Assembly: GCA_964537475.1 (NCBI GenBank)
Contig: CAZIBY010000007.1
Span: 2,837 to 66,836, forward strand
DNA length: 64,000 nt
Source of the DNA: an uncultured Chitinophagaceae bacterium
GTDB lineage: Bacteria; Bacteroidota; Bacteroidia; Chitinophagales; LD1
Reading direction: 5' to 3'
The notes under the pieces are model-generated. The model was not told the DNA's origin. It saw nothing but the letters and a program-made list of their open reading frames with translations, and searched no databases. Numbering within the stretch: position 1 is the first letter of the stretch; every line of letters begins with the position of its first letter. The translations under genes and the position numbers were made by a program. This document shows, in pieces, positions 6,366 through 61,891 of the stretch.

Positions 6366-9300
6366 TTATTTAGGCATCACAAAGGAGACGCTCTCCGGAT
6401 TGTAGTTGTCATCCAGTACCTTGGCATTGTATGAAACCGGGAAGGCTGCTGCAGATGCGCCACCTGCGCCTTGTATACCTATAGTAGCGCCTTGACCACA
6501 AGCGTTAGGGTCGTTAACGTAATAACGCACATTAACCAGATTGGAAGTCTCATGTATTTGTACCTGGAAGGTAACAGGATAACCCAAACCTTGTATCTGT
6601 GTTTCAAAGTCAGCCAGGAATACACGATTAGGGAAGGTGCCCAGAGTAGTGTACCTGATGCCATTGCCGGTAGCCGTGAGGTCATCCCAATAAGCGCAGA
6701 TAGTAGGATTAGTAAAGGAAGATGAAGGCAATTGTGAGTTCACCCATTGATTGGCTCCTGCTGCGCCAAACTGGAGGAAGCCATTGCTGCAGATATCAAT
6801 GGTAGAATAGGATACGCCTTTGATAGTCACAGAAAATCCCAGTGGTACATTGACAGTGCCGTCATCAGTTCCTGCCGTGATAGCAGTGATCCATCCTGAT
6901 ATATCATCACGACTGAAAGCGATATTGGCAGATCCTATGAAGTCTACAGGGCCTGTCGCTCCTGTAGCTCCTGTAGCGCCGGTCGCTCCTGTGGCGCCGG
7001 TCACACCTGTGGCACCTGTGGGACCGGTAATGCCCTGAGCACCTGTAGGACCTACCACACCCTGGATACCTTGTGCACCCGTAGCGCCAGTACTGCCCGT
7101 AGCGCCGGTAGCACCTGTGATACCTGTAGGACCGGTAATACCTGTAGCGCCGGTAGCGCCAGTAGCTCCTACGTTACCATCCATGCCCGATGGCCCCTGT
7201 GGTCCAGTAGGACCTGCTATGCCATCAGCACCCGTAGCACCGGTAGCGCCTGTGTTGCCATCTGTGCCGTTATTACCTGTCGCACCTTGCGGACCAGTAG
7301 GACCTGCGATACCATCAGCGCCAGTTGGGCCTGTCGCACCTGTGTTGCCATCTGAGCCGTTATTGCCTGTGGCACCCTGTGGACCGGTAGGCCCTGCTAT
7401 GCCGTCAGCACCGGTGAAGCCTGTAGCACCTGTAGCTCCTGTATTGCCATCCGTTCCGTTATTGCCTGTGGCACCCTGAGGGCCTGTCGGACCTGCTACG
7501 CCGTCAGCACCTGTAGGGCCGATAAGTCCATCTGCACCGGTGGGACCTACATCACCGGTAGGTCCTGTAGGGCCACCGGCGGGACCAGTGGCTCCATCTG
7601 CACCGGTAGGACCCTGCGCACCTGTAGGCCCTGTAGCACCATCGGCACCGGTAGTACCCGTAGGTCCATCCGCACCCGTTGGACCCATGTCACCTGTAGG
7701 ACCAGTAGGCCCGCCTCCCGGACCTGTGGCTCCATCTGCACCAGTAGAACCCTGCGGGCCAGTAGGGCCTGCGATACCATCTGGACCTGTAGGACCGGTA
7801 GCACCGGTTACGCCGGTATTGCCATTTGTACCGTTATTACCTGTCACACCTTGAGGGCCTGTAGGGCCAGCTATGCCATCAGCACCTGTAGGGCCGGTAG
7901 CACCGGTAGCGCCTGTGTTACCATTTGTACCGTTATTGCCGGTCACACCTTGCGGGCCTGTAGGACCTGCGATACCATCAGCACCTGTAGGACCGGTAGC
8001 ACCGGTTACGCCGGTATTGCCATTTGTTCCGTTATTACCGGCCACACCTTGCGGGCCTGTAGGACCAGCTATGCCATCAGCACCTGTAGGGCCGGTAACA
8101 CCGGTAGCGCCCGTATTACCATTTGTTCCGTTATTGCCAGTCACACCTTGCGGGCCTGTAGGACCTGCAATACCATCAGCACCTGTAGGGCCGGTAGCAC
8201 CGATTGCGCCAGTATTACCATTTGTACCGTTATTGCCGGTTACACCTTGCGGGCCTGTAGGACCTGCGATACCGTCAGCACCTGTAGGGCCGGTAGCACC
8301 GGTAGCGCCTGTGTTACCATTTGTACCGTTATTACCTGTTGCACCTTGCGGGCCGGTAGGACCAGCTATGCCATCAGCACCGGTTGGGCCTGTGGCACCG
8401 GTTGCTCCTGTGTTACCATTTGTTCCGTTATTGCCCGTCACACCTTGCGGGCCTGTAGGACCTGCTATGCCATCGGCACCAGTAGGGCCGGTAGCACCGG
8501 TAGCGCCCGTATTGCCATTTGTACCGTTATTACCGGTCACACCTTGAGGGCCTGTAGGACCTGCGATACCATCTGAGCCAGTTGGGCCTGTGGCGCCCGT
8601 TACACCCGTAGTACCATTTGTACCGTTATTACCGGTCACACCTTGTGGACCTGTAGGGCCTGCGATACCATCTGGACCTGTAGGACCGGTAGCACCGGTT
8701 ACGCCGGTATTGCCATTTGTACCGTTATTACCTGTCACACCTTGAGGGCCTGTAGGGCCAGCTATGCCATCAGCACCTGTAGGGCCGGTAGCACCGGTAG
8801 CGCCTGTGTTACCATTTGTACCGTTATTGCCGGTCACACCTTGCGGGCCTGTAGGACCTGCGATACCATCAGCACCTGTAGGACCGGTAGCACCGGTTAC
8901 GCCGGTATTGCCATTTGTTCCGTTATTGCCGGTCACACCTTGCGGGCCTGTAGGACCTGCGATACCATCAGCACCGGTAGCGCCTGTGGCACCGGTAGCG
9001 CCAGTATTACCATTTGTACCGTTATTGCCCGTCACACCTTGCGGGCCTGTAGGCCCTGCTATACCATCAGCACCCGTTGGGCCGGTAGCACCGATTGCGC
9101 CAGTATTACCATTTGTACCGTTATTGCCGGCTACACCTTGCGGGCCTGTAGGACCTGCGATACCATCAGCACCTGTAGGGCCAGTAGCACCGGTAGCGCC
9201 CGTATTACCATTGGAACCGTTATTGCCAGCGACACCTTGTGGGCCTGTAGGGCCTGCGATACCATCTGGACCTGTAGGGCCAGTAGCGCCATTGGCACCT

Positions 9301-10355
9301 ACCGGACCCGTAGCGCCTGCTGCTCCGTCTACACCAGATGGACCAGTCGGACCAGTAGCTCCGCCACCAGATCCTGTCGGTCCTGTCGCACCTGTAGCGC
9401 CGTCAACGCCAGTAGCTCCGGCAGATCCCGTAGGACCCGTCAAACCATTAGCTCCGGTAGGTCCTGTCGCACCCGTAGAGCCATTACTACCATTTGTACC
9501 TGCAGCGCCTGTAGGCCCCACCGGACCTATGGCTCCGTTCACACCTGCTGCACCTGTGGCACCGGTAGCGCCGGTTGATCCTGTAGCACCATTTGCTCCA
9601 TTACTACCCGCAGCTCCTGTGGGTCCCGTAGCACCATTTGTCCCATTTGTACCGGCCGCACCTGTGGGTCCGGTAGCGCCGTTCGTGCCATTACTGCCCG
9701 CGGCACCCGTAGGTCCCGTGGCACCATTGTTACCGTTTGTTCCATTCGCTCCTGCTGCGCCCGTAGGTCCTGTTGCTCCTGTTGCACCATTTACGCCATT
9801 GGTGCCCGCAGCGCCGGTAGGGCCTGTCGCTCCTGTCGCACCATTCGTGCCATTGACTCCGGCTGTACCTGTAGCACCCGTGCTTCCCTGAGGCCCAGTA
9901 GGTCCTATACCTCCTGCCGGACCGGTAGCGCCTGTAGGTCCAGGGGCACCGTTAGCGGCATATAGGGCATATGGTACGCTCAACAGCTGGCTGGTACCAT
10001 TGATAGTATAAGATGAGCCTCCGGCAGGATCTACCTCTACCTGTAGGAATTTCTCTCCGCCACCCCAGGTGATACTCGTAAAGGAGCCACTGGTCACGGT
10101 ACCCGATCCTATAGCATAGGTGAAGAGACCAAACTGATTGGTCGTAAGGCCGCTTTTGACCTCCTGATACTCTATAGTGCCAGTAGGCGACGCATCATGG
10201 ATGGTAAAACGGGCGCTGATGCTCTGATTTGCCAGTATCGCGCCAGATGCATTGCGGGCTACAGCCTGATAGTTGATCAGCTGCGGTACCTGCGCTGCAG
10301 CTGCTACAGAGAGCAGGCACAGCAGAGCAATAGCCAGGAGTTGATTTTTTTTCAT
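6366..10355 (-). CDS. Secreted collagen-like (Gly-X-Y) protein, 1329 aa
   Basis: Signal peptide; N-terminal [14 protein letters not shown]...[11 protein letters not shown] domain; about 1000 aa of GPT/GAT/GxN triplets; non-collagen C-terminal globular domain. Confidence 0.93.
7780..9262 (-). repeat. Intragenic tandem repeat, 99-bp (33-aa) unit, about 15 copies
   Basis: Unit [33 protein letters not shown]; the DNA marker gcgggcc occurs at 7952 and 8051, 99 bp apart. Confidence 0.9.
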
Positions 10356-11199: not shown

Positions 11200-11288
11200 G
11201 GTGAGATGGGTGAGAGGCTGAAACCACCAGTTTGCTAAACTGACGTACGGGTTAAACTGTACCGAGGGTTCGAATCCCTCTCTCACCG
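11200..11288 (+). tRNA. tRNA-Ser(GCT)
   Basis: Acceptor stem GGTGAGA/TCTCACC, anticodon loop TTGCTAA, long variable arm, GGTTCGAATCC T-loop. Confidence 0.95.
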
Positions 11289-11306
11289 CGCAGAGACAAA
11301 TAAGTT

Positions 11307-11381
11307 CGGGGTGTAGCGCAGTCCGGTTAGCGCACCTGCTTTGGGAGCAGGGGGTCCCAAGTTCGAATCTTGGTACCCCGA
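11307..11381 (+). tRNA. tRNA-Pro(TGG)
   Basis: Acceptor stem CGGGGTG/TACCCCG, anticodon arm CCTGC-TTTGGGA-GCAGG, GTTCGAATC T-loop. Confidence 0.95.
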
Positions 11382-11394
11382 CACAATGATAGAG

Positions 11395-11945: not shown

Positions 11946-13037
11946 CTAATTGCTTTTCACATCACTTTTCACATTCATAAATACCTGGTAAAGTGGGATA
12001 TTAAGAAAATAGTTACTCCGGCCTATTTTTTCCTTTTGCAGGAATCCCGCTTTTGAAAGACTTTCCAAATAACCGGTCGCAGTCGGACGGCTTACACTTA
12101 AGTCATTCATAACAAACTCAATCTTGGTGTAAGGGTGTTTGAAAAGGTTGTTTAGCAGATCCTGACTATATATTTTAGGTAAATCCTTTCGCATCCTTAC
12201 TTTATAATCTTGCATTAAGGTCCGAATACTTTTAACGAGATCGATAGTTTGTTTAGAGGTTTCCTCAATCCCCTTTAGCATGAACGCTAACCATTCTTCC
12301 CATTCACCAGTATCTCGAACATGTTGTAATAAGCGGTAGTAGTCCGGCTTATTTTCAACAATAAATCGGCTTAGATACAAAACTGGCAATTGTAACATAT
12401 CCTTACAAACGAGATACAAGATGTTTATGATACGCCCAGTACGACCATTGCCATCATAGAAAGGATGTATACTTTCAAATTGATGATGGATAACCGCCAT
12501 TTTTATAAGAGGGTCAACATCTGAAAGTTCATCATTGTTAATAAAGTCTACTAGGTTTTGCATTAATTGTAGAATCGTATCTGGATGTTGAGGTGGCGTA
12601 TAAACGACCTCTCCAGTTTTAGCATTTTTCAGTGAAGTACCAGGGAGCTTTCGTAACCCAGCATCATTTTGCTCTAATTCGCGTTGAATTTGCAAGATGT
12701 GGTTTAGAGTGAGAATTTTATCCTTTCGTACAATAGCAAATCCCTTTCTCAAAGCATTGGCATAGTTTTGTACTTCCTTAGTAGAAGAGCTAATAACAAA
12801 AGTCGCGTCTAGTTCCGCTTTAAAAAGCTCGTCTTGGGTCGTAATAATATTTTCAATTGCAGAGCTATCTTTAGCCTCTTGTAAGGTTAAGGTACTAATT
12901 AAAATCTGCTCATTAGGGATAGTAGCAGACACCCCTTTTAGCTCAGCTAAATGACGATGTGCCACAGCCAATAGCTTTAGTGTGGCCTTAGATTCCAAGT
13001 CCTCTTTTAAAGGAAGGGGCGACGGTTCCCAATTCAT
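11946..13037 (-). CDS. Fic-family protein (Fic_N + Fic + C-terminal wHTH)
   Basis: Canonical motif HPFYDGNGRTGR; N-terminal EAKDSSAIENI motif. Confidence 0.92.
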   Translation of the reverse strand: MNWEPSPLPLKEDLESKATLKLLAVAHRHLAELKGVSATIPNEQILISTLTLQEAKDSSAIENIITTQDELFKAELDATFVISSSTKEVQNYANALRKGFAIVRKDKILTLNHILQIQRELEQNDAGLRKLPGTSLKNAKTGEVVYTPPQHPDTILQLMQNLVDFINNDELSDVDPLIKMAVIHHQFESIHPFYDGNGRTGRIINILYLVCKDMLQLPVLYLSRFIVENKPDYYRLLQHVRDTGEWEEWLAFMLKGIEETSKQTIDLVKSIRTLMQDYKVRMRKDLPKIYSQDLLNNLFKHPYTKIEFVMNDLSVSRPTATGYLESLSKAGFLQKEKIGRSNYFLNIPLYQVFMNVKSDVKSN

Positions 13038-13245
13038 ATATATCCGATTAGAGGAGTGGCTTTGAAATATCTAAATCTAGACTGCTTTTAGGAAGCAACT
13101 AAGCTAATCTAACCTATTTTTTTAAAAATGCAATTGATTAAGATACTAGACCTGTGATTCAGTTTATCTAGAAAGGTGAGGGACCTTCTTGCAAAATTAG
13201 GAGCGATGCACATTTCGCCCAGGAAAGTATTTGGGATTGATGAAA

Positions 13246-14043
13246 CTAAAGATTTATACCAAGAATTCTACAGACAACCTCAATAGCTTTATCTTGATTA
13301 TCCCGAGCGAGATATTCTTTAATCCATTCAGCATTATTATTTAAGACCTGCACTTTATTAGATTGTGTAGAGGGTAGATTATAAGTCGGCAGTTCTTTTA
13401 TTGCATATAAAAATCCTGTCTCATAGTTATCATTGTTAAAATTCATGTCGGCAATGATTGTTTCCAATTCAAAAGATGGATAAGGATAACCGTTATAGGC
13501 ATTCCAGCATTTTAGTAAACGAATGATTGGTTTAACTATAGAGTAGTATTTATTATTTGCAGCCGTAAGGCTGTCATTGAAACCGCGAGGATCAGTATCC
13601 ATCCATTGTCCATCTTTACTTGGAATTTGATAAGAACTGCCCCAAAAGCTCTCATTCCATCTACTAGGTACAAGGTCAAACTTGATTTTACTCATTTCAA
13701 GCACAACTGATGGATGATCTTTTAGTATCCTTGTCGTAGGATATTTTGTGGTGGCAAATCTCTTTAGCTGACTACGGTATGTTTCTGGTATGTACTCTCT
13801 TTCTGCTTGGTCAAAAACGACAAGAATATCTATATCCGAATGCTCATCGAATTTTCTCGGTAGTATCGTATCTCTTTTATAAGAGCCAAAGACAAGGATT
13901 TCGTTTACTTCATTGCCAAAATACCCTTTAATGCTCTTTTCAAAGATCGCTACCTTGTTTTGTATATCTAACCTTTCAGGAGAGCCATGTTTGATAAAAA
14001 GATCTGCGGAAATCTTTTGTAACCTATAATTGATCGTTGCCAT
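13246..14043 (-). CDS. SMODS/CD-NTase-like nucleotidyltransferase (complete catalytic triad)
   Basis: FGSYKRDT, SDIDILVVF and KFDLVP motifs; IIRLLKCWN helix. Confidence 0.88.
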   Translation of the reverse strand: MATINYRLQKISADLFIKHGSPERLDIQNKVAIFEKSIKGYFGNEVNEILVFGSYKRDTILPRKFDEHSDIDILVVFDQAEREYIPETYRSQLKRFATTKYPTTRILKDHPSVVLEMSKIKFDLVPSRWNESFWGSSYQIPSKDGQWMDTDPRGFNDSLTAANNKYYSIVKPIIRLLKCWNAYNGYPYPSFELETIIADMNFNNDNYETGFLYAIKELPTYNLPSTQSNKVQVLNNNAEWIKEYLARDNQDKAIEVVCRILGINL

Positions 14044-14822
14044 TACCTGATGTTATATCTCGCTTTAATCCTGACCCATTCCGCTGTGAGAGGCGGATTA
14101 TACTTTTTGTAAACTTTCTCCGGAATTTCTGCATTGATACGGCTATGTAGTGATTCGTATTCAAGCCAATATCTGTAAATTGAGGCATAATACTTGGTAG
14201 TATCAGATTTTAGATCAGAGTGCTGAAATAAAGTAATCCAGGAGTTTTGAATATTTTCTAAATGCGCTTGTAGAATAAGATGCTTGATTAAACCACCGAG
14301 GATATTAGCGGAAAAAAGAGCTTGCAATACTGAAAGAGCGAAGGGAACTTGTTCAAAGCCATAATAGGAAAATACCACCATGAAAATGAGCATTACTACA
14401 GGTACAATAATTCTTCTAAGTGTTACTTCTTTGACCAATGAAAGTGTAAAGAAGCAGTTTTCAAAAAGATTTACAGCAGCCTTATATAAGCCCTGACTTA
14501 CTTCTTCGTTGTCAAAATAGTCAACGGAACTATTTGTCGAAAATGAGGAACCAAAAGAATTGTCGATAAAGTCATCCCTTCTTTTTTTATCAGTAAGAGG
14601 AATGAGGATATAATCACGGATCAATTCCAATGCAAAAAAGATACTAATGCCAATCATATTCAAAATATCAATGGCATGTAGGATATGCCAGCGATCGCAA
14701 TACTCTTTGAATGCCACCGGAATAATAGAAAAGCCAAAAATAGCCCAGAAGATGATCCCTGTTGCTAAGCTAATCGAGTTGACTATCTTAAAGGAGCTGT
14801 ATTGAGGTGAGTAGGTAGCCAT
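14043..14822 (-). CDS. Four-transmembrane protein, putative CBASS-type membrane effector
   Basis: Two pairs of hydrophobic helices around a soluble KRRDDFIDNSFG...NLFENCFFT loop; TAATG overlaps with both flanking NTase genes. Confidence 0.7.
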   Translation of the reverse strand: MATYSPQYSSFKIVNSISLATGIIFWAIFGFSIIPVAFKEYCDRWHILHAIDILNMIGISIFFALELIRDYILIPLTDKKRRDDFIDNSFGSSFSTNSSVDYFDNEEVSQGLYKAAVNLFENCFFTLSLVKEVTLRRIIVPVVMLIFMVVFSYYGFEQVPFALSVLQALFSANILGGLIKHLILQAHLENIQNSWITLFQHSDLKSDTTKYYASIYRYWLEYESLHSRINAEIPEKVYKKYNPPLTAEWVRIKARYNIR

Positions 14823-15538
14823 TATTTGTTATCAATGAATTTAAGCCATTCAGTTTTTAAAGTAGCAGGGTCAAAGTTGTTTTTCATTAAACCAAAAAAT
14901 TTGACAGCGTCGGCTTTAAAGTTATTGTTTTGAAAGAATGTCCATATCCAATCACTTATACCTTGACTTGCGACATGAGAATTCAAGAAAAGATTGCAAA
15001 CTCGAATTTCAATATCATAGTTTTTTAATCCTCTTTTGTAGTTGTAGTTCCACAACTTTAAAATTTTAATGAGATCAATAAATTCAATATTTTTTGATCT
15101 TAAAGCGTCTACCGCATTTTCAAGTTGCCCAAAGTTTATCGCCTTCCAATTGAGCAGAACATTATCTGGAATTCCCATCAAACCATTTTCAAGTTTATAC
15201 GGGGTAATATTGATAGGTATTTTATTAAAATCTACAAGTATTGAAGGTTTATCCTGCCTTATGTCTGATGTTGGATAACTGGCCATTAGACAACTCTTTA
15301 GTGTTGCAAGGGCAGCTTGTGAATTACCATTACCTATGTATTCGAAATACACATCTACATCACTAATTCCTTTAACCATCGTTCTTCTTTTGTATGAACC
15401 TCCGAGAAAAGGGGCTCTAAATTGAGGTTGATTGTTAATGATATTCTTGAGATTACTTAGGGTAGTTGAAATGTTCTCCATTTCTATACGATTGTAAGAT
15501 ATCAGTTGGGACTTATCTTTAATAAAGGTGTCAAGCAT
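14822..15538 (-). CDS. Second SMODS/CD-NTase-like nucleotidyltransferase, with Asn at the third Asp position
   Basis: GGSYKRRT and SDVDVYF motifs; INITP aligns with FDLVP of the 265-aa paralogue; LIKILKLWN helix. Confidence 0.8.
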   Translation of the reverse strand: MLDTFIKDKSQLISYNRIEMENISTTLSNLKNIINNQPQFRAPFLGGSYKRRTMVKGISDVDVYFEYIGNGNSQAALATLKSCLMASYPTSDIRQDKPSILVDFNKIPINITPYKLENGLMGIPDNVLLNWKAINFGQLENAVDALRSKNIEFIDLIKILKLWNYNYKRGLKNYDIEIRVCNLFLNSHVASQGISDWIWTFFQNNNFKADAVKFFGLMKNNFDPATLKTEWLKFIDNK

Positions 15539-15661
15539 AATACGGGTTCGGTGATTTTAAGTGCTAATATACATCTATTATTTTGTAAATTAAATCCACA
15601 GTGACAGGTGGGGACTAACTTGACTATAAAGGTTAAGCTTTGCAGTTCTCACCAAAGTTTT

Positions 15662-15684
15662 TTTGGGGTATATTTGGGGGTATG
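15662..15684 (+). repeat. Direct repeat TTTGGGG(G)TAT x2, arm-type-site-like element end
   Basis: TTTGGGGTATA-TTTGGGGGTATG, between the defence islet and a truncated gene. Confidence 0.45.
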
Positions 15685-15754
15685 TCCTAAATACACATTG
15701 AGAAATATCAAGGTAATTCAAGATGTTAATTGCCCCAATAGTAAGGACTTCCTC

Positions 15755-16002
15755 CCTATGAGGCGGCAAGTCAAAACTCAATGCGTATGGGCAGCTAAAG
15801 GATTATCTAACTCTTCGTTCGCCATATTCCGGCGTGATAACGCAACGAAACGTTGATGTCGGAACATTAGTAGGAGGGAGTAATCAAAAGCCTTTGCTTG
15901 TAATTGAAAACAACGGCACTATGCGTTTAGGATCGCCTACCGGAGGTGTGCACGACAGCCGTACCCGATACATCCGTTGTTAGCTTTACGGTAGATGCTC
16001 AG
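15755..16002 (+). pseudogene. Internal fragment of an RND efflux periplasmic adaptor (MFP) gene
   Basis: Translates as NAYGQLKDYLTLRSPYSGVITQRNVDVGTLVGGSNQKPLLVIE, then after frameshifts PEVCTTAVPDTSVVSFTVDAQ; no start codon and no intact end. Confidence 0.7.
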
Positions 16003-16143
16003 CTTCTAACAATATGGTGATGCATGAATTGGATATTTCAATAAATCGAATGAAAATAGTGAGCTATCAAATTGAATTTTTGTTTGAGACAAAAAGACAA
16101 GTATTTCTGTTTCCAATTATTTTTTTGTTCCTTTAACCTGATA

Positions 16144-30345: not shown

Positions 30346-31578
30346 TCAATCGCGTATTATTTGTTGAGTTAAAGCAGCTTGTCCCAAATTTGCCACCTTT
30401 TTCTTAGAGCCGTACATTGTATGTGTCGCAGCATTTATTGCGTCTAACACAGAACTTTGTGCCAGACGTGCGTATATAACAGTTGCCGCTGAACTTTTAT
30501 GATTGAGAGCTTTGCCGATCATTGGAAGACTTGCGCCGCTAATTGCCATGTAACTACCAAAAGTTCGGCGTAAATCATGAATGCGAATATCCTGAACTCT
30601 CATTCGTTTTTTGATTCTGCCGAATGCCTTTTTAGGGTCTTGAAGATGGCCCGTTGAACCTTCTCCTGGAAACACAAATACATTTGGAGACTCAGATTGC
30701 TTATTAGCTTCATATCGGTTCTTTAGTATTTTCGTGGAGGCTTCAGATAACAGTACAATATTCACTTCGCCATTTTTGGATTCTTTTGCATCAATCCTCC
30801 AGCGGCTTAAATCAAAATCTATATCCGAATACTTCATAGCTAGAACATTAGATTTTCGCGCACCGGTGTAAAGAAGGATCATGAAATAATCTCGAAATAA
30901 GTCACTCTCCCTATTAGTGGCAGCGATAAATTTGAAGAGTTCCCGTTTGCTTAGAAAGCGGTCTCGGCTGAAAGTTTTAAATTTTCTAACTCCGAGGCAT
31001 GGATTTAAACCTGTATAATGATTATCCTTAATCGCAAAGTTATAGGCAGCACTCATGATCTCAACGACCCTATTTGCCATGACTTTGTGATCTTTACCTA
31101 TGGACTGATGGAGTTGTCTGACCTTATCACTTTTTATAGTGGATAATTTATGATTTCCAAAAACAGGATAGACATGTTTAGTAATCATTTTGAGATTATC
31201 ATTGGGTCTTTTGGTAAAGACCAGACCATGATTTGTATAATATCGAGTATAGAGTTCTTTGAAAGTTAGCTCAGCTTTCAATTCCATTTTTCCCGCGAGA
31301 GGATGCTCTCCTAAGGCGATTTGTCCATTCATTGCATCAGCGATCTCCCTAGCCTTTTGCAATTTTAGATCTGGGAATCTACCGAGTTTAACTCGCATAA
31401 ACTTACCATTGATCTTTCGAACAAGATTATATGTTTTAGACCCAGATGGGTTAACCCTAACTCTAAGTCCTCTAATGATTGTGTCTGCTACATCATATTG
31501 AATTCCTTTAACAGGAAGTTTATCAATTAGTGCAATTGTTAAGTTCACTGATTGCTTCACTCCAAGCCTCCGATGCAA
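30346..31578 (-). CDS. P4-like tyrosine integrase with N-terminal arm-binding domain
   Basis: GLRVRVNPSGSKTY...KLGRFPDLKLQKAR arm domain; TGARKSN, HDLRRT and LNH...YAR catalytic residues. Confidence 0.93.
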   Translation of the reverse strand: MHRRLGVKQSVNLTIALIDKLPVKGIQYDVADTIIRGLRVRVNPSGSKTYNLVRKINGKFMRVKLGRFPDLKLQKAREIADAMNGQIALGEHPLAGKMELKAELTFKELYTRYYTNHGLVFTKRPNDNLKMITKHVYPVFGNHKLSTIKSDKVRQLHQSIGKDHKVMANRVVEIMSAAYNFAIKDNHYTGLNPCLGVRKFKTFSRDRFLSKRELFKFIAATNRESDLFRDYFMILLYTGARKSNVLAMKYSDIDFDLSRWRIDAKESKNGEVNIVLLSEASTKILKNRYEANKQSESPNVFVFPGEGSTGHLQDPKKAFGRIKKRMRVQDIRIHDLRRTFGSYMAISGASLPMIGKALNHKSSAATVIYARLAQSSVLDAINAATHTMYGSKKKVANLGQAALTQQIIRD

Positions 31579-31580
31579 AA

Positions 31581-31600
31581 TAGGATACCAATAGGATACC
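31581..31600 (+). repeat. Left arm-type repeat TAGGATACC x2
   Basis: TAGGATACC-AA-TAGGATACC. Confidence 0.7.
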
Positions 31601-31718
31601 CAAGAAATGAAAAGTCGTCAAACTTCATAGAGGAATAGTAGCTCGACATGCCAGTAAATACAAGCAATTGATCCAGAAATCGAAAACAACGAAAGGTTAT
31701 AAAATGCTCTGAAAATGT

Positions 31719-31763
31719 TTTACACCGAGGTGGTCGGGGGTTCGAATCCCTCACCGCCCACCA
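31719..31763 (+). other. 3' half of tRNA-Val(TAC): att core (not a full tRNA)
   Basis: TTTACAC anticodon loop, CGAGG, GGTTCGAATCC T-loop and ACCGCCC-A-CCA end; no 5' half or D-arm upstream. Confidence 0.88.
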
Positions 31764-31809
31764 ATGTTTTCAAAGACTTAATAGAACTGAAAAATATGGT
31801 AAAGAACTA

Positions 31810-31829
31810 TAGGATACCTATAGGCAACC
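31810..31829 (+). repeat. Right arm-type repeat TAGGATACC / TAGGCAACC
   Basis: TAGGATACC-TA-TAGGCAACC; same motif and orientation as at 31581. Confidence 0.7.
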
Positions 31830-32069
31830 GCACAAATCGATTTCCCTCAAAATCCCCATTCCAGCCAAAATCTACCCTTTTATGATTTTAATTAGACTTT
31901 TCGTCTATAAATACTATTCATAATTATTCATAGCTGTTGATAGTGATTGATATGACAATTTTAAGTTGTTTTTTATTCGATTAATATATTATTCAATTGC
32001 TGCCTTTTGGAGGTCAAAGGGTGGCTGTTTGAAGAAACAGCATTTGAGATTAGAACGTTGGAGTGAGGA

Positions 32070-32285
32070 ATGACGACGATTAAGGAAGAAGATATTCTAC
32101 TTACACGAAAAGAGGCCGCAAGGTACATTGGATTAAAGACAAATACCCTGGCTACTTGGGAATGTCACGGAAACTATGAATTAGAACCAATTCGTATAGG
32201 TAATCACAGAGTTCGATACAGACGCTCAGCCTTAGATAACTATATCAATCGCAGAATGGTCAAGAGCCATAAATCGAAGCAATAG
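32070..32285 (+). CDS. Excisionase-like helix-turn-helix protein
   Basis: LLTRKEAARYIGLKTNTLATW...RVRYRRSALDNYI. Confidence 0.85.
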   Translation: MTTIKEEDILLTRKEAARYIGLKTNTLATWECHGNYELEPIRIGNHRVRYRRSALDNYINRRMVKSHKSKQ

Positions 32286-32335
32286 CTTGCAATAAGCCAA
32301 TTTCAATCTAATCATCTAAAGAGAAAGAGAACGCG

Positions 32336-33238
32336 ATGAATATTCATCAGGCGCAGCGTATTCCTATTGTCCATGTTTTGGAGAAAATGAATGCAAGAAT
32401 TATCGAACGAGTTGGGAGTATTACTTGGTACTTATCTCCCCTACGCAATGAAAGCAATCCTAGTTTTTACGTGAACAGCGATAAAAACTTCTGGTTTGAT
32501 ACAGGTTTAAGGCGAGAGGGTGATACTATAGCCCTTGTTTGCGCTTATCTGGAATACTCAAATGAAAATTATCGAATTCAGGATGCTTTACGTTGGATAA
32601 AAAATATGCTTGGACCAGTTCGGGAAATTGCGTCTGTGCACGTCCCGGATTACTCAAAGCAGGATCGTAGATTTGTACTTCGAAATGCTAAACCTCTTGA
32701 AAATATTGGTCTTATAAAATATCTTAAAAGCAGAGGCATACCATGTAGCTTAGCTTTCAAACATTTGAAAGAAGTGAGGATTTACGATTCCGAAAGCAAA
32801 ACCACGTTTCTAACCTTGGGTTTGAGGAATGAGTCAGGCGGTTATGAATTACGTCATCCTACATTCAAAGGAAATATCCGTCGAAGAGACATTACATTTA
32901 TTCGAGGCAAAATACCTAAACACGAGAGCCTGAATATCTTTGATGATTTCATGGATTACTTATCAGCTATCATTTATCGGAATGGAATTGAATTTGATGG
33001 AGACAGTATAATCCTAAACTCGCTTTTGTGCATGAAGCAAGCAGTAGCTTATATTAAAAATTATGGCTACACCACGGGATATACTTGGCTAGATAATGAC
33101 ATTGAAGGACACCAAGCTACTAAAGCCTTCGCGAAATATTTTAAGTTAGAAGATAATCTCACTCATAAGCCGATGAACAACTTGTACAAAGGTTACAAGG
33201 ATGTAAATGACTGGCTGTGCAAGAATAAAGAACATTAG
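32336..33238 (+). CDS. Mobile-element DNA primase-like protein (N-terminal Zn-finger-like + Toprim)
   Basis: WYLSPLRNESNPSF...WFDTG; FMDYLS, LNS, LDND and YKDVNDWL motifs. Confidence 0.85.
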   Translation: MNIHQAQRIPIVHVLEKMNARIIERVGSITWYLSPLRNESNPSFYVNSDKNFWFDTGLRREGDTIALVCAYLEYSNENYRIQDALRWIKNMLGPVREIASVHVPDYSKQDRRFVLRNAKPLENIGLIKYLKSRGIPCSLAFKHLKEVRIYDSESKTTFLTLGLRNESGGYELRHPTFKGNIRRRDITFIRGKIPKHESLNIFDDFMDYLSAIIYRNGIEFDGDSIILNSLLCMKQAVAYIKNYGYTTGYTWLDNDIEGHQATKAFAKYFKLEDNLTHKPMNNLYKGYKDVNDWLCKNKEH

Positions 33239-33250
33239 TTTCAACTCATA

Positions 33251-33285
33251 GCTGTAGTAAGGCTGCAACTCAGCTTTACTACAGC
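33251..33285. terminator. Hairpin between convergent genes, probably a bidirectional terminator
   Basis: GCTGTAGTAAGGCTG-caact-CAGCTTTACTACAGC: 15-bp stem with one G-T pair. Confidence 0.6.
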
Positions 33286-33303
33286 AATATTTGTGATTAT
33301 TGT

Positions 33304-33663
33304 CTATTCCAATTTAATCGAAGTAATTACACCAATAGCTATATCCGTTTCTGTTATGTATCTAGCATCCTTTGCAACAATAACCTTGAGAGCGTGGTTC
33401 ATAAGTTGCTCAAAGCGTCTTTGAAGATTATAACCTTTTAATACAATAACTTGGGAGGTAAAGTAAACTTTCACAATATCCATTTTATCGCTAGACAAGA
33501 GTTCTACGGAAACAAGGTATGCATAATTAAAAAATGCTCTTCGCCCCATTTCTGAAATGAAACATACATTGCGCACCGCACATCCGATGTCGTACAATTC
33601 ATTGTCAATTTGCTCTTCAGCAAAATTATCACTAAAGCTGTGGTTTAATGTCATTGTCATCAC
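33304..33663 (-). CDS. Hypothetical protein coupled to the MobF relaxase gene
   Basis: Overlaps the 3' end of the relaxase gene; RNVCF...FNYAYL...LKGYNL motif. Confidence 0.65.
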   Translation of the reverse strand: MMTMTLNHSFSDNFAEEQIDNELYDIGCAVRNVCFISEMGRRAFFNYAYLVSVELLSSDKMDIVKVYFTSQVIVLKGYNLQRRFEQLMNHALKVIVAKDARYITETDIAIGVITSIKLE

Positions 33664-36388
33664 CTATGTGAAAAGACTGGAAGTTTAGAATTTCATGATT
33701 TCGAAGAATTATTTTTGGTTGGTTTAGTCGGGCCAAATGTTCTGCTGCTTTAACCGAAACACTTTTAGCACCCAAAGCTTCTATCGCAGATCGCCTATCA
33801 GCATCATCAGAAGCATGATTAAAGAGACCTTGAAGATCGTCTGTATAAATTGTTGCTTTATCACGTCCGCGAGAAACGGATACATAGAATTGCTTCAAAC
33901 TCGTCGCCGGAAAGGTTGAGCTTGGCTGAGCAATAAAAACTTCATCGACGGTTTTGCCCTGAGAAGAATGTGATGTAATGCAATAGCCATGAGTTAAGTG
34001 ACCAAAGTCCTTTGGCAACAAATATTCTATTTTGCTAACAGAATTACAAAATCTTAGATTGCCATTTTTATCAATTGAAAGGAATTTAAGAACAGTACCA
34101 TTATCTAATCGCCTTTTCTGTAGATCATACAAATTACGAGTGATTTGAATCGTGTCATTCTCTGATAAAGGGAGGCAACTTTGATAAAAAACATCAAAGG
34201 CATTGGAACGATCTAACTGTAAAATTGCTTTAGCACCAGTTTGCGTTTCAATTTCAATATTGGTAATATTGTTTGAAACAACCGTCCACACCGATCCGCG
34301 CGCAATACCTTGGAGATTTTGGTTGAATTGAATTTTCAAACCCTTCCTATAGTTTCGGGCATCAGATTTTTCAGCTAACGTCATATTGGTATTGGTTAGC
34401 ATAGGAACAAGAATGTCCGTCACTCCAATACGACCGCACTGTCGCAACATCTGTCGAATTTCTGATGTTACTTTATCCCCTTCTTTATGTGTGGGTGCAA
34501 TCACCAAGGCACTGCGTCCTTTACCAACCACTTCCATATAGTCCATTACAAGGGTTTTATAGTTGCTTTTCGCGTTGATTTGTTTCAATGCACCCATTTC
34601 CAGAAGCTTATGGAAGCCTTCTACTATATTACCCTCAGAAAACGCTTGAACTGCCTCCCTGTAATCTTCAGCTCTCTGACGGTATATCCGGCTTACATTT
34701 GCCGACTTAATGCCCGCTACTGTGTTTAAAATGCGCAGGGCATCACCGCGCACCACACTCGAATGTTGTCTTGTATCACCACTGAGTATAAGTCTCGCAT
34801 TTTGGTTTTGGGCCAATGCAAGTAGCGAACACATATCTTTTGTACCCAGTAAACCTGCCTCATCGACCCAAAGCACACCATTTCTCAATACGGCATGCAA
34901 ATCCGGGGTGGTCAACAATTTTGTGACTGTCTCAGCACTGTTGAAACCCTCATTCCGCAACACCCCCCTTGAAGCTTGCGCAGTAGGAGCAACAACAGTC
35001 ACTTCCTTGCCCATTTGTTCAATGAGCTTAATCGTTTCCTTCATAAGGGTTGTTTTACCCGTTCCAGCACGGCCTTGGATGATAGATACTCGGTTTGTCG
35101 TGGTCAGAACATGATTTATAGCCTCTAATTGCTCACCGGAGAGCTTTATTGACGGCAAAATATTATATAGAGGTTTTAATTTCCCTCTACCAGCATTAGC
35201 CAAGCTAACCATGAGCCTTTCTTCGGCCAAGACATCTTTAGTTGTACAAAGAGTTTTGGAGCCATCTTTAACTTTTAAGATTCGTCTATCTTTGGAATAC
35301 GTCTCTATGATTTCCTGAAAACTGACCTGCGAAAAGCTGATTGCGTGACGTAAAGCACTTTCGAGAATGCGCCGCTCATGTACAACGGATGCTCGTTCCA
35401 ACCGCAAATCCAATGCGTAATCAATACAATTTTTAGCGCTAATGCCATTAGATTCCAGATGATTGGCAAAACGGACAGGAGTATTCTCATCTATAACTTT
35501 ATCCAATTTCCGAATTTGCTTGCGCCATTGTGACTTTAACTCAGTCATTGGTTTGCCTTTAGACTTTTGGGATCGCGTCAATGAACCCAATGCGTCTAAC
35601 TCCTTTTGATCTGTTATATTTTGTTCTCGCGCGATTAATCCGATTTCACTGGTACGTTTTGAGAATAAGTCAATGACTGCCCGGGGAATGTTCTCAACTT
35701 CGAAAGACTTATCTGTTCGCTTTATATGGTAACCAAGGGCAATAAGCTTATCCGAAAGTATCTTGTGAAATTGAGCCTGATAAAAAGGCATGTCACGCTT
35801 GATATCGTGAAATTGACCTGCTTTAAATTTCTTTTCTACGTTATCCCAGGTCACATTGAAAGTGAAGCAATGACAATGTAAATGTGGATCGGGATCAGCT
35901 AAACCTACGGGTCGCGCAGTTTGATGTACGAAGTCCGCCCACACTAGTTCCCCCGTGCATCTATTTTCATTTGCCTTACCTATAACCCCGCTTTTTCGAA
36001 TTCTCGTTTGAACATCCCTTTCAATGTTGAACATAGTTTCACTTACACTCTGAGTAAACGCGTCAAGGATATGTGCATCTTGAGCCAATGCGTGAAGGAT
36101 TGAAACTGATTTGGGACAGTGAAAGTTGATATCATAACCTATTCGTCGAATGCTTTTAGTCCTTGGCGTAAGCCTCTCACCTGTGAGTGGATGAATATTC
36201 TCACACAAAGCATGAAAGACATCCTTTGATGTCTTACCAGTAATGCATAGACGCGCAGCAACCTTTCCTTGAATGTGACCACTTAATTCTTGGTCATTCA
36301 AGTAGTAGTCGGTTTTGCGGAGCGCTTCATTAAAGTATTCTTTAGCCCGGCGTACTGATTGAGAAAGAATCATACGTATCATTCCCAA
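33632..36388 (-). CDS. MobF (TrwC-like) relaxase-helicase
   Basis: DYYL tyrosines; GYDINFHCPKSVS; HQTARP...DPHLHCH HUH motif; helicase Walker A QGRAGTGKT and VDEAG. Confidence 0.93.
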   Translation of the reverse strand: MGMIRMILSQSVRRAKEYFNEALRKTDYYLNDQELSGHIQGKVAARLCITGKTSKDVFHALCENIHPLTGERLTPRTKSIRRIGYDINFHCPKSVSILHALAQDAHILDAFTQSVSETMFNIERDVQTRIRKSGVIGKANENRCTGELVWADFVHQTARPVGLADPDPHLHCHCFTFNVTWDNVEKKFKAGQFHDIKRDMPFYQAQFHKILSDKLIALGYHIKRTDKSFEVENIPRAVIDLFSKRTSEIGLIAREQNITDQKELDALGSLTRSQKSKGKPMTELKSQWRKQIRKLDKVIDENTPVRFANHLESNGISAKNCIDYALDLRLERASVVHERRILESALRHAISFSQVSFQEIIETYSKDRRILKVKDGSKTLCTTKDVLAEERLMVSLANAGRGKLKPLYNILPSIKLSGEQLEAINHVLTTTNRVSIIQGRAGTGKTTLMKETIKLIEQMGKEVTVVAPTAQASRGVLRNEGFNSAETVTKLLTTPDLHAVLRNGVLWVDEAGLLGTKDMCSLLALAQNQNARLILSGDTRQHSSVVRGDALRILNTVAGIKSANVSRIYRQRAEDYREAVQAFSEGNIVEGFHKLLEMGALKQINAKSNYKTLVMDYMEVVGKGRSALVIAPTHKEGDKVTSEIRQMLRQCGRIGVTDILVPMLTNTNMTLAEKSDARNYRKGLKIQFNQNLQGIARGSVWTVVSNNITNIEIETQTGAKAILQLDRSNAFDVFYQSCLPLSENDTIQITRNLYDLQKRRLDNGTVLKFLSIDKNGNLRFCNSVSKIEYLLPKDFGHLTHGYCITSHSSQGKTVDEVFIAQPSSTFPATSLKQFYVSVSRGRDKATIYTDDLQGLFNHASDDADRRSAIEALGAKSVSVKAAEHLARLNQPKIILRNHEILNFQSFHIGDDNDIKPQL

Positions 36389-57577: not shown

Positions 57578-58924
57578 ATGCAGACAATTGAATTTGGATT
57601 ATATGAAGGGCTCGTCGACGAATTAGAGGCGCGCATCATTGATAAATTTCGTGCTGGTAACCCAGAGCCGCCATTGCTATTAGACTTCAGTTCGATTCAA
57701 TTTATTCGCGTCGAATCTCTCGTGTATCTTGTTTCATTTATTGCAAGACGTCACAAGCAAAATATTGAGACTAAAATCAAGTATTATTCTAACACTACTA
57801 TCCGGCAGTTTCTTAATACTTCCCGTTTCTTTGAGACGATTGAAGATGTCTGCGGCCTAGCAATTACAGATTTAGTAGTTGACTTACCTGCGAATTTTGA
57901 GAAAACAGCGCTGTCAATTGATTATTTCAAACGGTCAAAATTTGAACTTTCACCGGACGGGACACAGCGTGAATTAACAGAGAAAGAAAAAATAGAATAT
58001 TTAAAAGAAAAGGGCTTCTATCCTCTATCATCATTGGCATTTGAAGATGATATTCAGAAATCTAATACATTAAAAGAAGAACCTAAGAATTGGACAGAGG
58101 GGAAACCTATTGTTTCAATTATTCAGAAAAATCTCCCCGAAAAAGTGGTCGTAGGTGATAAAATATCAAAACATATCATCTATGAAAGTATTACCAATGC
58201 TATTAGACACCCCAAAAGTGGTAAGCTTGTTATCTCATGTATCAGACAAGACAACTATTATACACTTGTGATTTGGGACAATGGAGAAAGCATTGTTGAA
58301 ACGCTAATGGGAGAATTGGAAAAAGGAAATTCAATAAAAGCGGAATCATCTGACGATGATTTTCACTCTTGTTATTGTGTCGTAAAAAATAAGATACCTG
58401 GTCGACCAAAGGCTGAGAACTTCGACTATTTCTTCTCCTATGATATCCCCAATTTAAATGAGGTGGATGAAACCAAATTATATAGAAAAGAGAAATGGTT
58501 TGTTTTGCTTTCTTCCCTTTTTCCGGGTATTACACGAGATCCCCAAGGTGCTGACTATGATAAGAGAAAAATCCTTAACGAAGTCGAAAAGCCACCCTTA
58601 ACGGGAAGAGGGCTAACTTATCTTATCAATGCGGCAGTTAGAAATTTTGGTGGAGAAGTTCGGATAAGAACTAGTAACTATTTTGTAAACATCAAACAGG
58701 CTGAAAAAGATTATAAAACTTTACCAACGCTTTTCTTTAATAATTTCAAAAACGATTATTACGTCATAGACTATAAAGAAAAATATGACGCTGAGAATAT
58801 TGAACCCCAAAATAAGAAGATTATAAACAGTTTATTCAGAGCCAAGGTTGAGGAATTTTCTAATAATTACCCTCCTTTTGAAGGCAACATGATTACTGTT
58901 CATATTCCGCAAATGAGCCTATGA
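57578..58924 (+). CDS. STAS-like + GHKL/HATPase_c protein
   Basis: LLLDFSSIQFI STAS-like strand; ESITNAIRH N-box; WDNGES G1 and GRGLTYL G2 boxes. Confidence 0.7.
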   Translation: MQTIEFGLYEGLVDELEARIIDKFRAGNPEPPLLLDFSSIQFIRVESLVYLVSFIARRHKQNIETKIKYYSNTTIRQFLNTSRFFETIEDVCGLAITDLVVDLPANFEKTALSIDYFKRSKFELSPDGTQRELTEKEKIEYLKEKGFYPLSSLAFEDDIQKSNTLKEEPKNWTEGKPIVSIIQKNLPEKVVVGDKISKHIIYESITNAIRHPKSGKLVISCIRQDNYYTLVIWDNGESIVETLMGELEKGNSIKAESSDDDFHSCYCVVKNKIPGRPKAENFDYFFSYDIPNLNEVDETKLYRKEKWFVLLSSLFPGITRDPQGADYDKRKILNEVEKPPLTGRGLTYLINAAVRNFGGEVRIRTSNYFVNIKQAEKDYKTLPTLFFNNFKNDYYVIDYKEKYDAENIEPQNKKIINSLFRAKVEEFSNNYPPFEGNMITVHIPQMSL

Positions 58925-60804
58925 TAACCCTATATCCTTTTCTTTTTCGATTTGGAATTTCATTCAATTATAGTATTCCTAAAGAGATTATTGAATCTGT
59001 CAGAGTTTTTTTCCAAGCGAAATACAGTATAAACATTAACCTAAATCAATCCGCTGATAGCTACGATTGCATTGCAATTTCGGATAAAGATGCTGAGTAT
59101 ACACCAATACTTGGAAATAGATTTACAGAGAGATTAAACGAGTATGGCATCGCAGATTTTCAACAATCAATATTGTTTATTGATATAAAGAGCGTCTACA
59201 GTCATAAATTCGTTGACAGCTTTTTGATACCAGAGATTATAAAAATTAAAAATGAGCATAAATTAAAAACGGGTACGTTCCCTAATTTCATTCTTTATTT
59301 TGATGAATTAGAAAGTAAATCGTTGACCTATGATAAATTATTTACCAGTCATGCTTCAAATAAGATCTTAGATTTTTGTTATGTTTTTGACAAAAATGGC
59401 AATTTTCTTAATCCCAAATTGGAAATTGCTGCGGATAGTAATCTTCACACGCTAGTAAACGACACTTCTACTTCAGCACTCGAAAGATTCCAATTCAAAC
59501 TCGTAAGAAAAATTAATCATTTTGAAAGGCTGGATGATAACAGCCATTCATGGGCCGCTTGCCAACAATTTTTTTACGAAGGTCAAAATTGTGATGAAGA
59601 AGTTTTTCAGCTTTTAAAAGAAGAACTCCTTAAAATGCACAAGGAGGGTATTAACCCTCATTACATCGTATATCATACGTTATATTCTGAATGGCTAACT
59701 AGAGCAATCGAGTCCGTGTCGAATACTATTGGATCAAGATCATTCGAGGATGTGTTTACGCATTATTCGAAAAAGCACTCCACTGAAGGCGAGAATCATC
59801 TTAATCTTGCTGGTGTTAACGACATACGAAACAGTGATGATTGGATTTCAGATGAAGAAGGATTGGAGATCGTATTTATTACAGACTTAATTCATACTGG
59901 AAATACCTTTAAAGAGAAAATAAAGAAAGTTTCTAAGAAATTCCCTAATGCGAAAATCACTTGCTTGAGTGCGTTGGTGACAGATCATGCTTATGAAGAG
60001 AATAAAAGTACAAATCAAGAAACAGATAGGAAATTTCAAATTAACAGCCACGTTGTTAGATATTTTAAAAAAGTTGAACAAATCTACATTCCGAGATCAT
60101 CCAACGGCACTAAATGCCATATGTGCAAACATAATCTGCTCCCGCCAGCTAATATAAAAGCCGATATTCTTCCGGGTTTATCAAGCTATGAAATGTGGTT
60201 AATGAGCGAAGAATCAGGGTATAAAATTGAGGATTACCGTCCTAGAAGAAGAGAAGATGTGAATAGGTTAGTACCCCACTCTCTCAAACTTTTCAAAAAA
60301 AACGGCACTCTATTGGCGATTAAATTTGAGGAGCAATTAAAACTAGCAGAAATATACCCCAATATTGAAATCGTCATCTTATTCCCCGATGAAACACAAA
60401 ATGACTATGAAGATGGGCTTCCTGAATCTATTGAAAAAACCCCTTCTGGATATTTTGCGAAATGCCTAAATTTTTACAACAATAAGTACACTTACTTAGG
60501 CATACCTCGGAAAATGATTAAGTTGTTGGAAGAGAAAAACGCGGATTGGGATAAGGTTCAAAAACAATTTCCTAAGATCCTAAAACAGATCGAAGATATT
60601 GACAAACCAATAGTCATTCTCGATGAAGCCAATTTTACAGGTAAAACATTCAGAACAATTGCTGACATTCTCCGTAACAAAGGCAAATATCCTGTATGCT
60701 ATTTCCCTATTTTTAATTATGATGCTCAAAGAACAAATGACGAGTTCAAAAAGGAATATGATTCAGTAAAGTTTCTAAATCTCTATGAATTAAATTTCGC
60801 ATGA
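58921..60804 (+). CDS. Protein with two type I phosphoribosyltransferase-like domains
   Basis: Two PRPP-loop-like motifs, IVFITDLIHTGNT and IVILDEANFTGKT; ATGA overlaps on both sides. Confidence 0.7.
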   Translation: MITLYPFLFRFGISFNYSIPKEIIESVRVFFQAKYSININLNQSADSYDCIAISDKDAEYTPILGNRFTERLNEYGIADFQQSILFIDIKSVYSHKFVDSFLIPEIIKIKNEHKLKTGTFPNFILYFDELESKSLTYDKLFTSHASNKILDFCYVFDKNGNFLNPKLEIAADSNLHTLVNDTSTSALERFQFKLVRKINHFERLDDNSHSWAACQQFFYEGQNCDEEVFQLLKEELLKMHKEGINPHYIVYHTLYSEWLTRAIESVSNTIGSRSFEDVFTHYSKKHSTEGENHLNLAGVNDIRNSDDWISDEEGLEIVFITDLIHTGNTFKEKIKKVSKKFPNAKITCLSALVTDHAYEENKSTNQETDRKFQINSHVVRYFKKVEQIYIPRSSNGTKCHMCKHNLLPPANIKADILPGLSSYEMWLMSEESGYKIEDYRPRRREDVNRLVPHSLKLFKKNGTLLAIKFEEQLKLAEIYPNIEIVILFPDETQNDYEDGLPESIEKTPSGYFAKCLNFYNNKYTYLGIPRKMIKLLEEKNADWDKVQKQFPKILKQIEDIDKPIVILDEANFTGKTFRTIADILRNKGKYPVCYFPIFNYDAQRTNDEFKKEYDSVKFLNLYELNFA

Positions 60805-61532: not shown

Positions 61533-61630
61533 GATCGTAATTAAAGTTTCTCACAATCTGCACTCGGAAATAATTTATGGCAATCACGGGCTATCCGCAG
61601 TACATGATACTTGCTCCTATCCCTATTGCA

Positions 61631-61891
61631 TTAACGGTCAAAATCCTTTCCCTTTTCTTTGTTGCGCTGACGCTTCTCTTTTGATTTTTGAAGCTCCTCC
61701 CTAAACTTTTCCCGCTTTAATTCTTGGGAGCCTTCATCCAGACCTTGGAAGTACAGGCTTTTTTTATCCTGAATTCCGTTACGCAAGGCATTCATCGTTT
61801 CAGGGTTTTCCCTCTCCAATTCATATCCATGATTAAAGCCCCGTGCATACGTAGCCTTTTCTTCCTTTGTAAAGTCCTTTTCCTCACTCAT
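61631..61891 (-). CDS. Small hypothetical protein of the mobile element
   Basis: Coupled to the HTH gene; YARGFNHGY motif; charged tail KEKGKDFDR. Confidence 0.65.
   Translation of the reverse strand: MSEEKDFTKEEKATYARGFNHGYELERENPETMNALRNGIQDKKSLYFQGLDEGSQELKREKFREELQKSKEKRQRNKEKGKDFDR

Follow-up and report, generated by a model that had tools for sequence, protein, structure and literature searches.

The window analysed here is a 64,000-nucleotide stretch of contig CAZIBY010000007.1 (assembly GCA_964537475.1) from an uncultured Chitinophagaceae bacterium, and the system in question is a three-gene operon on its minus strand that resembles an antiphage signaling system based on cyclic oligonucleotides (CBASS). 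The operon encodes two proteins with the fold of nucleotidyltransferases like cGAS and DncV (CD-NTases), one on either side of a membrane protein with four transmembrane (4TM) segments. In the direction of transcription, the genes are an open reading frame (ORF) of 238 aa (NTase-A; 15538..14822), an ORF of 259 aa (the 4TM effector gene; 14822..14043), and an ORF of 265 aa (NTase-B; 14043..13246). The sequence reads TAATG at both junctions, giving a stop/start overlap of 1 nt at each. The three genes, the overlaps at 14822 and 14043, and the Gly-Ser and Asp-x-Asp motifs in both nucleotidyltransferases, all of which had been described in the original prediction, are confirmed from the sequence.

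The second and third genes of the operon together have the composition of a type I CBASS. NTase-B matches the Pfam SMODS model (93 bits; cutoff 26.5) and, over its full length, the PADLOC cyclase model PDLC00769 (253 bits), and it carries the complete set of CD-NTase cyclase residues: G53-S54, D70-x-D72, and D123, that is, the full triad. D123 is kept in 120 of 120 NTase-B homologs. The AlphaFold2 (AF2) model of NTase-B has a predicted local distance difference test score (pLDDT) of 91, and its top Foldseek match is the solved CD-NTase PaCdnD. On these sequence features, NTase-B is presumed to be the operon's signal synthase. The middle protein belongs to a known CBASS effector family, matching the PADLOC Effector/4TM model PDLC00726 over residues 2-259 of 259 (150 bits), and hydropathy analysis places its hydrophobic segments at about residues 19-37, 47-68, 138-156, and 161-179. 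The cytoplasmic loop between the second and third transmembrane segments (residues ~75-125; RRDDFIDNSFG...LYKAAVNLFEN) contains RRDDFIDNSFG...YxDN...GLYKAAVNLFEN, by far the best-conserved part of the protein across 20 loci, and may serve in ligand binding or in gating. ORF lists and hidden Markov model (HMM) scans detected no Cap2-, Cap3-, HORMA-, or TRIP13-like gene in the neighbourhood of the operon in the window, as had been predicted, and the type IV CBASS markers QueC, TGT, and OGG were likewise absent. The CBASS-like assignment of the original prediction therefore stands, and, by sequence criteria, the operon is a type I CBASS.

NTase-A, the first gene product, has the fold of a CD-NTase and nearly all of its active-site residues. 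The protein matches the Pfam SMODS model (55.3 bits, against the same cutoff of 26.5), its best PADLOC score is 71 bits (on the cyclase model PDLC00769), and its AF2 model has a pLDDT of 91. Foldseek comparison of the model returned, as best matches, CdnD, CdnC, and CdnB proteins at TM scores of 0.7-0.8, including the solved CD-NTases PaCdnD, EcCdnC, and BfCdnB; MiD51 and NF90-NF45 were also among the matches. Both proteins of the operon score below the equivalog cutoff of 200 of the NCBIfam 'CBASS oligonucleotide cyclase' model (80 bits for NTase-A, 91 bits for NTase-B), scores that are weak as grounds for exclusion, because both proteins are divergent from the curated models. NTase-A keeps G47-S48, D60-x-D62, K158, K161, and E177.

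The exception is the third catalytic site. BLASTP, a 27-sequence multiple alignment, and hhalign profile-profile comparison (probability 98.9%) all align Asn110 of NTase-A (codon AAT; 15209-15211, minus strand) on Asp123 of NTase-B, so that an Asn stands where CD-NTases have their third metal-binding Asp/Glu. NTase-B D123 ('FDLVP') in turn aligns to the Asp of 'MDVVP' in BcCdnD (9sa4), for which the triad is D73/D75/D123, its last member coordinating both the second Mg2+ and the acceptor 3'-OH (PMC13424991). The profile alignment of NTase-A with PaCdnD is blurred around the third site by a CdnD insertion, and the mapping is based on BcCdnD, hhalign, and the multiple alignment instead. These results bear out the predicted placement of the Asn. 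NTase-A thus has the fold and SMODS domain, the Gly-Ser motif, and the [DE]x[DE] motif of a CD-NTase, and lacks the third Asp/Glu; because of this last point, we do not count it among the true cyclases. As judged from sequence, the NTase-A pocket is complete but for one carboxylate-to-amide change.

The carboxylate-to-amide change is a property of a family rather than of one strain. NTase-A homologs form 124 clusters, largely from Bacteroidota. For the 120 listed clusters, identity to NTase-A is 44-72%, length is mostly 236-247 aa, and the residue at the third site is Asn in 118 and Glu in two. G47-S48 and D60/D62 are kept in 118-119 of the 120, and K158, K161, and E177 are essentially invariant. 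Across NTase-A loci, the third-site codon is AAC in 17, AAT in 12, and GAA in one; the use of both AAC and AAT indicates that the Asn has been held through synonymous change. The ratio of nonsynonymous to synonymous substitution rates (dN/dS) for closely related locus pairs is 0.05-0.06 for NTase-A, and the same for the effector and NTase-B. The original prediction held that an Asn unique to this strain, together with homologous loci lacking NTase-A, would mark a decaying duplicate; the homologous loci keep both the Asn and the gene.

NTase-A homologs also form a discrete clade: an exhaustive profile search gave 17 representatives at E<1e-30, and below these a gap sets them apart from generic SMODS proteins. 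Within the wider clade, a basal branch (P0253-P0256) and the outgroups carry Glu or Asp at the third site, the crown carries Asn, and P0244 carries Asp; the two Glu-containing crown members are nested in separate Asn subclades. One lineage, P0250/P0390, consists of full-length proteins with 71% mutual identity in which the Asp-x-Asp aspartates are gone (GIINI and GIVNL) and the third site is Thr (locus L044, 299-1102; short contig, with the neighbouring gene on the opposite strand). That these proteins persist without the Asp-x-Asp motif argues that catalysis is dispensable in the NTase-A clade. The family is not represented in current defence-system HMM sets (best PADLOC score, 71 bits), and is therefore probably missed or mis-scored in genome surveys.

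Two further ideas about the family were considered and rejected. The first, that NTase-A proteins with Glu occur only where NTase-B is absent, fits P0037 (L046; NTase-A with Glu followed by 4TM) but fails for P0042 (L047), in which NTase-A with Glu is followed by 4TM and NTase-B, the protein being the same as in L026. The second, that NTase-A is a phage- or plasmid-borne decoy, found no NTase-A-family match among 50,697 phage records and, among plasmids, only SMODS matches at no more than ~30% identity.

To place NTase-A in its genetic setting, we recovered 13 genome and 25 metagenome loci, classified every ORF in them by BLAST and with the SMODS HMM, and took as informative a set of ~30 non-redundant NTase-A loci with enough flanking sequence. 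NTase-A is accompanied by at least one full-triad SMODS protein in 22 of the ~30. The arrangement of the window (NTase-A, 4TM, NTase-B) is found in nine loci (the window, L001, L002, L003, L005, L011, L024, L026, and L021), and an arrangement in which the middle gene encodes a SLATT_4 protein and the third gene encodes a different cyclase (B', which carries Glu at the third site) is found in another nine. The remaining orders are NTase-A, SLATT_6, NTase-B (L010); NTase-B, NTase-A, 4TM (L020 and L038); and 4TM, NTase-B, NTase-A (L009). The alternatives to 4TM are Pfam SLATT_4, Pfam SLATT_6, and PADLOC 2TM effectors, making four effector types in all. Two loci, L021 (5001-8116) and L006 (5953-8872; on the same contig as L029), contain NTase-A, NTase-B, and B' together with a single membrane effector, no second effector being seen within their flanks.

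Eight NTase-A loci contain no second SMODS gene, and tblastn detected no NTase-B remnant in any of them. Five have the look of intact pairs of NTase-A and effector (L007, L028, L008, L025, and L046), one (L023) looks decayed, with a truncated SLATT gene, and two lie in CRISPR loci. In L008 (5602-8662), the NTase-A homolog is annotated as a 372-aa protein (P0083) with a weak GIY-YIG-like N-terminal extension, and is followed by 4TM and then by a gene with a Ser/Thr protein-kinase domain.

The converse arrangement, NTase-B without NTase-A, is also found. Genes of the NTase-B family at 61-67% identity form 4TM-B pairs in L040-L042 and a B-SLATT_4 pair in L039, which indicates that effector and NTase-B constitute a complete type I CBASS to which NTase-A is an add-on. 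The 4TM effectors of loci with NTase-A only, with NTase-B only, and with both form one intermixed family with a common cytoplasmic loop. In another locus without NTase-A, L043 (1834-4804), the genes encode an SMODS protein (324 aa, with a C-terminal Gly; PADLOC PDLC00820, 571 bits), a minimal E2, 4TM, and a B-family cyclase. The SMODS protein occupies the usual position of NTase-A, and it appears that a single 4TM effector serves both a type II-like and a type I cyclase.

The results establish which of its neighbours NTase-A is tied to. NTase-A lies immediately 5' of the transmembrane effector gene in 24 of 24 loci measured, and the two genes are separated by a median of 1 nt (range -4 to 22). 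NTase-A proteins are on average 63% identical when their loci share an effector type and 61% identical when the types differ, whereas the corresponding values for NTase-B are 44% and 30%. For L021 (4TM) vs. L022 (SLATT_4), the NTase-A proteins are 79% identical and the adjacent cyclases 27% identical. NTase-A and NTase-B distances are weakly correlated (Mantel r 0.28), NTase-B genes linked to NTase-A and NTase-B genes without it are intermixed in the NTase-B tree, and the partner cyclases match, over their full length, two different PADLOC models (PDLC00769 for NTase-B and B'; PDLC00776 for the partner in L038). We conclude that NTase-A is a portable cassette whose link is to the effector gene and not to NTase-B, and that it is shuffled among at least two cyclase families and four effector types.

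The portability of NTase-A extends beyond CBASS. Two copies are embedded in CRISPR loci of type III-B. In L012 (1027-7541; on the same contig as L032), the type III-B operon is complete and the gene order is Cas10/Cmr2, Cmr3, Cmr4, Cmr5, Cmr6, NTase-A, Cas6, with gaps of 3-12 nt. In L031 (4998-10714), NTase-A is followed directly, on its 3' side, by a gene for an 844-aa fusion of an NrN-like DHH domain, with the DHH motif, to a C-terminal CorA domain, after which come a 445-aa ORF and a Cas10-like gene whose product has GGDD. In CorA-containing type III-B systems, Cas10 makes the signal SAM-AMP, with CorA acting as the membrane effector, usually beside, or fused with, an NrN or DEDD phosphodiesterase (Chi et al. 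2023, PMC10600005). An SMODS-domain accessory is not among the components that the papers compared report for type III-B: the terms 'SMODS' and 'nucleotidyltransferase' are absent from the text of PMC10600005, and no such accessory is described in two recent CRISPR papers.

According to the explanation that we favour, and to which we give a probability of about 0.5, NTase-A is an accessory sensor or regulator that binds nucleotide and is catalytically crippled. NTase-B would make the signal, as an ordinary cyclase, and the 4TM protein would disrupt the membrane in response. NTase-A, with its third carboxylate replaced by Asn and all of its predicted Mg-NTP-binding residues kept, would be a natural 'substrate-trap' in which nucleotide is bound and catalysis is crippled or very slow; it would make no primary signal, and, being co-translated with the membrane effector, would gate, or set the threshold of, the effector or the cyclase that feeds it. 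NTase-A could act as a sensor, as a signal buffer or sponge, or as an antitoxin-like restraint on the effector.

Support for this explanation comes from proteins in which the same kind of change has been made in the laboratory. DncV D193N, which has the same third-site Asp-to-Asn substitution, was crystallised with unreacted ATP and GTP (PDB 4u0m), and the D73N and D75N variants of BcCdnD are inactive and yet bind ATP at 140 nM (PMC13424991). The description of NTase-A as crippled but nucleotide-binding is based on these two precedents, and its description as an accessory sensor or regulator is based on the same analogy together with the lineage without Asp-x-Asp, the shuffling among cyclases, and the contexts driven by Cas10. 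NTase-A has lost an essential catalytic residue under purifying selection, which is the pattern expected of a pseudo-enzyme, and we infer, by analogy with DncV and BcCdnD, loss of catalysis, retention of nucleotide binding, and a regulatory role. Among the three interpretations put forward in the original prediction, that of a pseudo-enzyme sensor or regulator fits the comparative data best; an obligate heterodimer is disfavoured, and altered chemistry survives as a live rival. More tentatively, and as a possibility that we rate below the regulatory role itself, the NTase-A clade may be a new class of defence accessory, in which a substrate-trapped CD-NTase fold serves as nucleotide receptor or buffer and gates, physically or functionally, membrane effectors (4TM, SLATT, and CorA) in both CBASS and type III-B CRISPR systems, whatever the signal synthase.

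Several results weigh against this explanation, and most of them favour the live rival, namely that NTase-A is an active second cyclase that either tolerates Asn110 or, because of it, has an activity that is low or under different regulation. NTase-A and NTase-B would then sense different phage cues and both make the ligand of one shared effector, as a two-sensor, one-effector CBASS. The near-invariance of G47, S48, D60, D62, K158, K161, and E177 is also what a working enzyme would show. By normal CBASS logic, NTase-A would make the signal in the five apparently intact loci that consist of NTase-A and effector with neither a second SMODS gene nor an NTase-B remnant, and the 4TM effectors of such loci are of the same family, and have the same conserved loop, as those of loci with NTase-B only. 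The two Glu-containing crown members are independent reversions from Asn to Glu, each requiring at least two nucleotide changes, and suggest that the pocket can still be catalytically useful. A conserved residue of the neighbouring strand, D103, is a candidate compensating carboxylate, being at ~8 Å and on the same face according to the hairpin geometry read from the DSSP string of the model. Several cyclases per effector are, moreover, a wider theme, seen in L043 and in L021 and L006.

Against a second active cyclase stands the conservation of the third site elsewhere: a carboxylate is kept there in all 120 NTase-B homologs, in B', and in the outgroups, and its replacement by Asn in DncV is what traps the substrates unreacted. 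A lineage without Asp-x-Asp persists, NTase-A proteins at 75-79% identity pair with different effector families, and NTase-A occurs in CRISPR operons already equipped with a Cas10 signal synthase in which GGDD is intact. We regard a second active cyclase as possible and tentative, and the catalytically crippled regulator as the better account of the data.

A heterodimer in which NTase-A completes or controls the active site of NTase-B, such that neither works alone, appears decidedly unlikely. Co-transcription and translational coupling of the two genes in one operon, the pairing of NTase-A with a full-triad SMODS protein in most of the informative loci, and the existence of pseudo-enzyme heterodimers with the nucleotidyltransferase fold (NF45-NF90, the Foldseek match noted above) are as such a heterodimer would predict, but systems with only NTase-A and systems with only NTase-B both exist, the correlation of NTase-A and NTase-B distances is weak, NTase-A switches between NTase-B, B', and a PDLC00776-type cyclase, and gene order keeps NTase-A by the effector, not by NTase-B (as in the B-A-4TM loci L020 and L038). 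Finally, that NTase-A is a functionless, decaying cyclase duplicate, as the loss of one catalytic residue and cyclase-model scores lower than those of NTase-B might suggest, is refuted by the low dN/dS, by the 124 clusters of mostly full-length homologs with invariant motifs, by the Asn held through AAC/AAT turnover, and by the conserved position and effector coupling.

Comparison with known systems places the operon close to type I CBASS and NTase-A outside the known accessory modules. EcCdnD12-4TM and EcCdnF04-SLATT6 exemplify the type I systems whose membrane effector is 4TM or SLATT (bioRxiv 10.1101/2023.05.21.541620). Like these systems, the operon has a full-triad cyclase beside 4TM and has no Cap2, Cap3, HORMA, or TRIP13, and its B-family homologs are exactly such two-gene systems; unlike them, it has a third conserved gene, for a CD-NTase-fold protein with a third-site Asn, 5' of the effector and translationally coupled. 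As a portable accessory on varied cyclase-effector pairs, NTase-A resembles the Cap2/Cap3 module of type II and the HORMA/TRIP13 module of type III, but its fold and chemistry are unrelated, NTase-A being a cyclase paralog without conjugation or remodelling domains. The original prediction had raised the possibility that NTase-A fills the role of these missing regulators. The CorA/NrN module of type III-B likewise pairs an accessory enzyme with a membrane effector and modulates the toxicity or signalling of that effector, although the accessories known for it are phosphodiesterases or lyases (PMC10600005).

With respect to the catalytic site, the closest likeness is to the laboratory Asp-to-Asn traps, in which a carboxylate of the metal triad is changed to an amide and nucleotide binding is kept (DncV D193N, 4u0m, at the same third-site position as NTase-A Asn110; BcCdnD D73N/D75N, PMC13424991). 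These traps are engineered, whereas NTase-A is a naturally selected family in which binding without turnover is putative. Pseudo-enzymes with the nucleotidyltransferase fold provide a second likeness: MiD51 and NF45/NF90 combine a fold like that of cGAS and OAS with an incomplete set of catalytic residues, and some of these proteins bind nucleotides, but they are eukaryotic, serve other biology, and generally have a more degraded active site than NTase-A, in which the Gly-Ser and Asp-x-Asp motifs are kept. OASL is another pseudo-enzyme with this fold.

The full-text literature searched for two, second, dual, or inactive CD-NTases, and for SMODS, 4TM, or SLATT, contained no description of the layout, in line with the original prediction, which knew of no characterised example; an earlier mention in Burroughs 2015 or Millman 2020 is possible. 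The results suggest that NTase-A is a regulatory add-on not described before, and not a duplicate in decay. What restrains type I CBASS, and then triggers it, is an open question, these minimal systems being without a recognised regulator, and a conserved accessory derived from a cyclase could be such a regulator. If NTase-A is a regulator, it would be a bacterial parallel to the eukaryotic pseudo-enzymes with the nucleotidyltransferase fold; if it is active, an amide at the third metal site would be compatible with CD-NTase function, and several sensors would converge on one effector.

The operon lies within a low-GC island (0.36-0.41, with flanks at 0.45-0.60), at the edge of which are genes for tRNA-Ser(GCT) and tRNA-Pro(TGG) (11200-11382, plus strand), a site that may be an integration hot spot. 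The intergenic region 5' of NTase-A (15539..16071, minus strand) is the presumed location of the operon promoter; the promoter scan used the sigma-70 consensus, a model whose coverage excludes Bacteroidota promoters. Just two ORFs of 50 aa or longer are listed in this region (15590-15781, minus strand, 63 aa; 15608-15856, plus strand, 82 aa); they overlap each other, are mechanical, and are not counted as genes. At the other end, a terminator-like hairpin with T-run, detected by consensus scan only, lies 26 nt 3' of the NTase-B stop (13201..13220, minus strand) and is the probable end of the operon, with the weakness that similar sites occur in the region no more often than expected from shuffled sequence.

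Neighbouring ORFs encode a SoFic-like Fic protein, proteins with type IX secretion system (T9SS) tails, and a multicopper oxidase. The SoFic-like Fic/DOC gene (11946-13037, minus strand), 208 bp 3' of NTase-B, shares the low-GC island with the operon; its product scores 398 bits on PADLOC SoFic and has Fic_N, Fic, and SoFic-like_C domains. It is a defence-type gene in its own right. It was considered as a part of the system and rejected: with the Fic protein as BLAST query, no homolog was found in L001-L038, and the terminator-like site lies between the SoFic gene and NTase-B.

Elsewhere in the window, a 1329-aa ORF (6366-10355, minus strand) within a high-GC stretch (~0.6) consists of nearly nothing but collagen-like Gly-X-Y repeats (Pfam Collagen) followed by a non-repetitive C-terminal domain, and the long mirror ORFs opposite it are repeat artefacts. 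Further low-GC stretches (0.34-0.39) at 31000-34000 and 58000-62000 are candidate additional islands.

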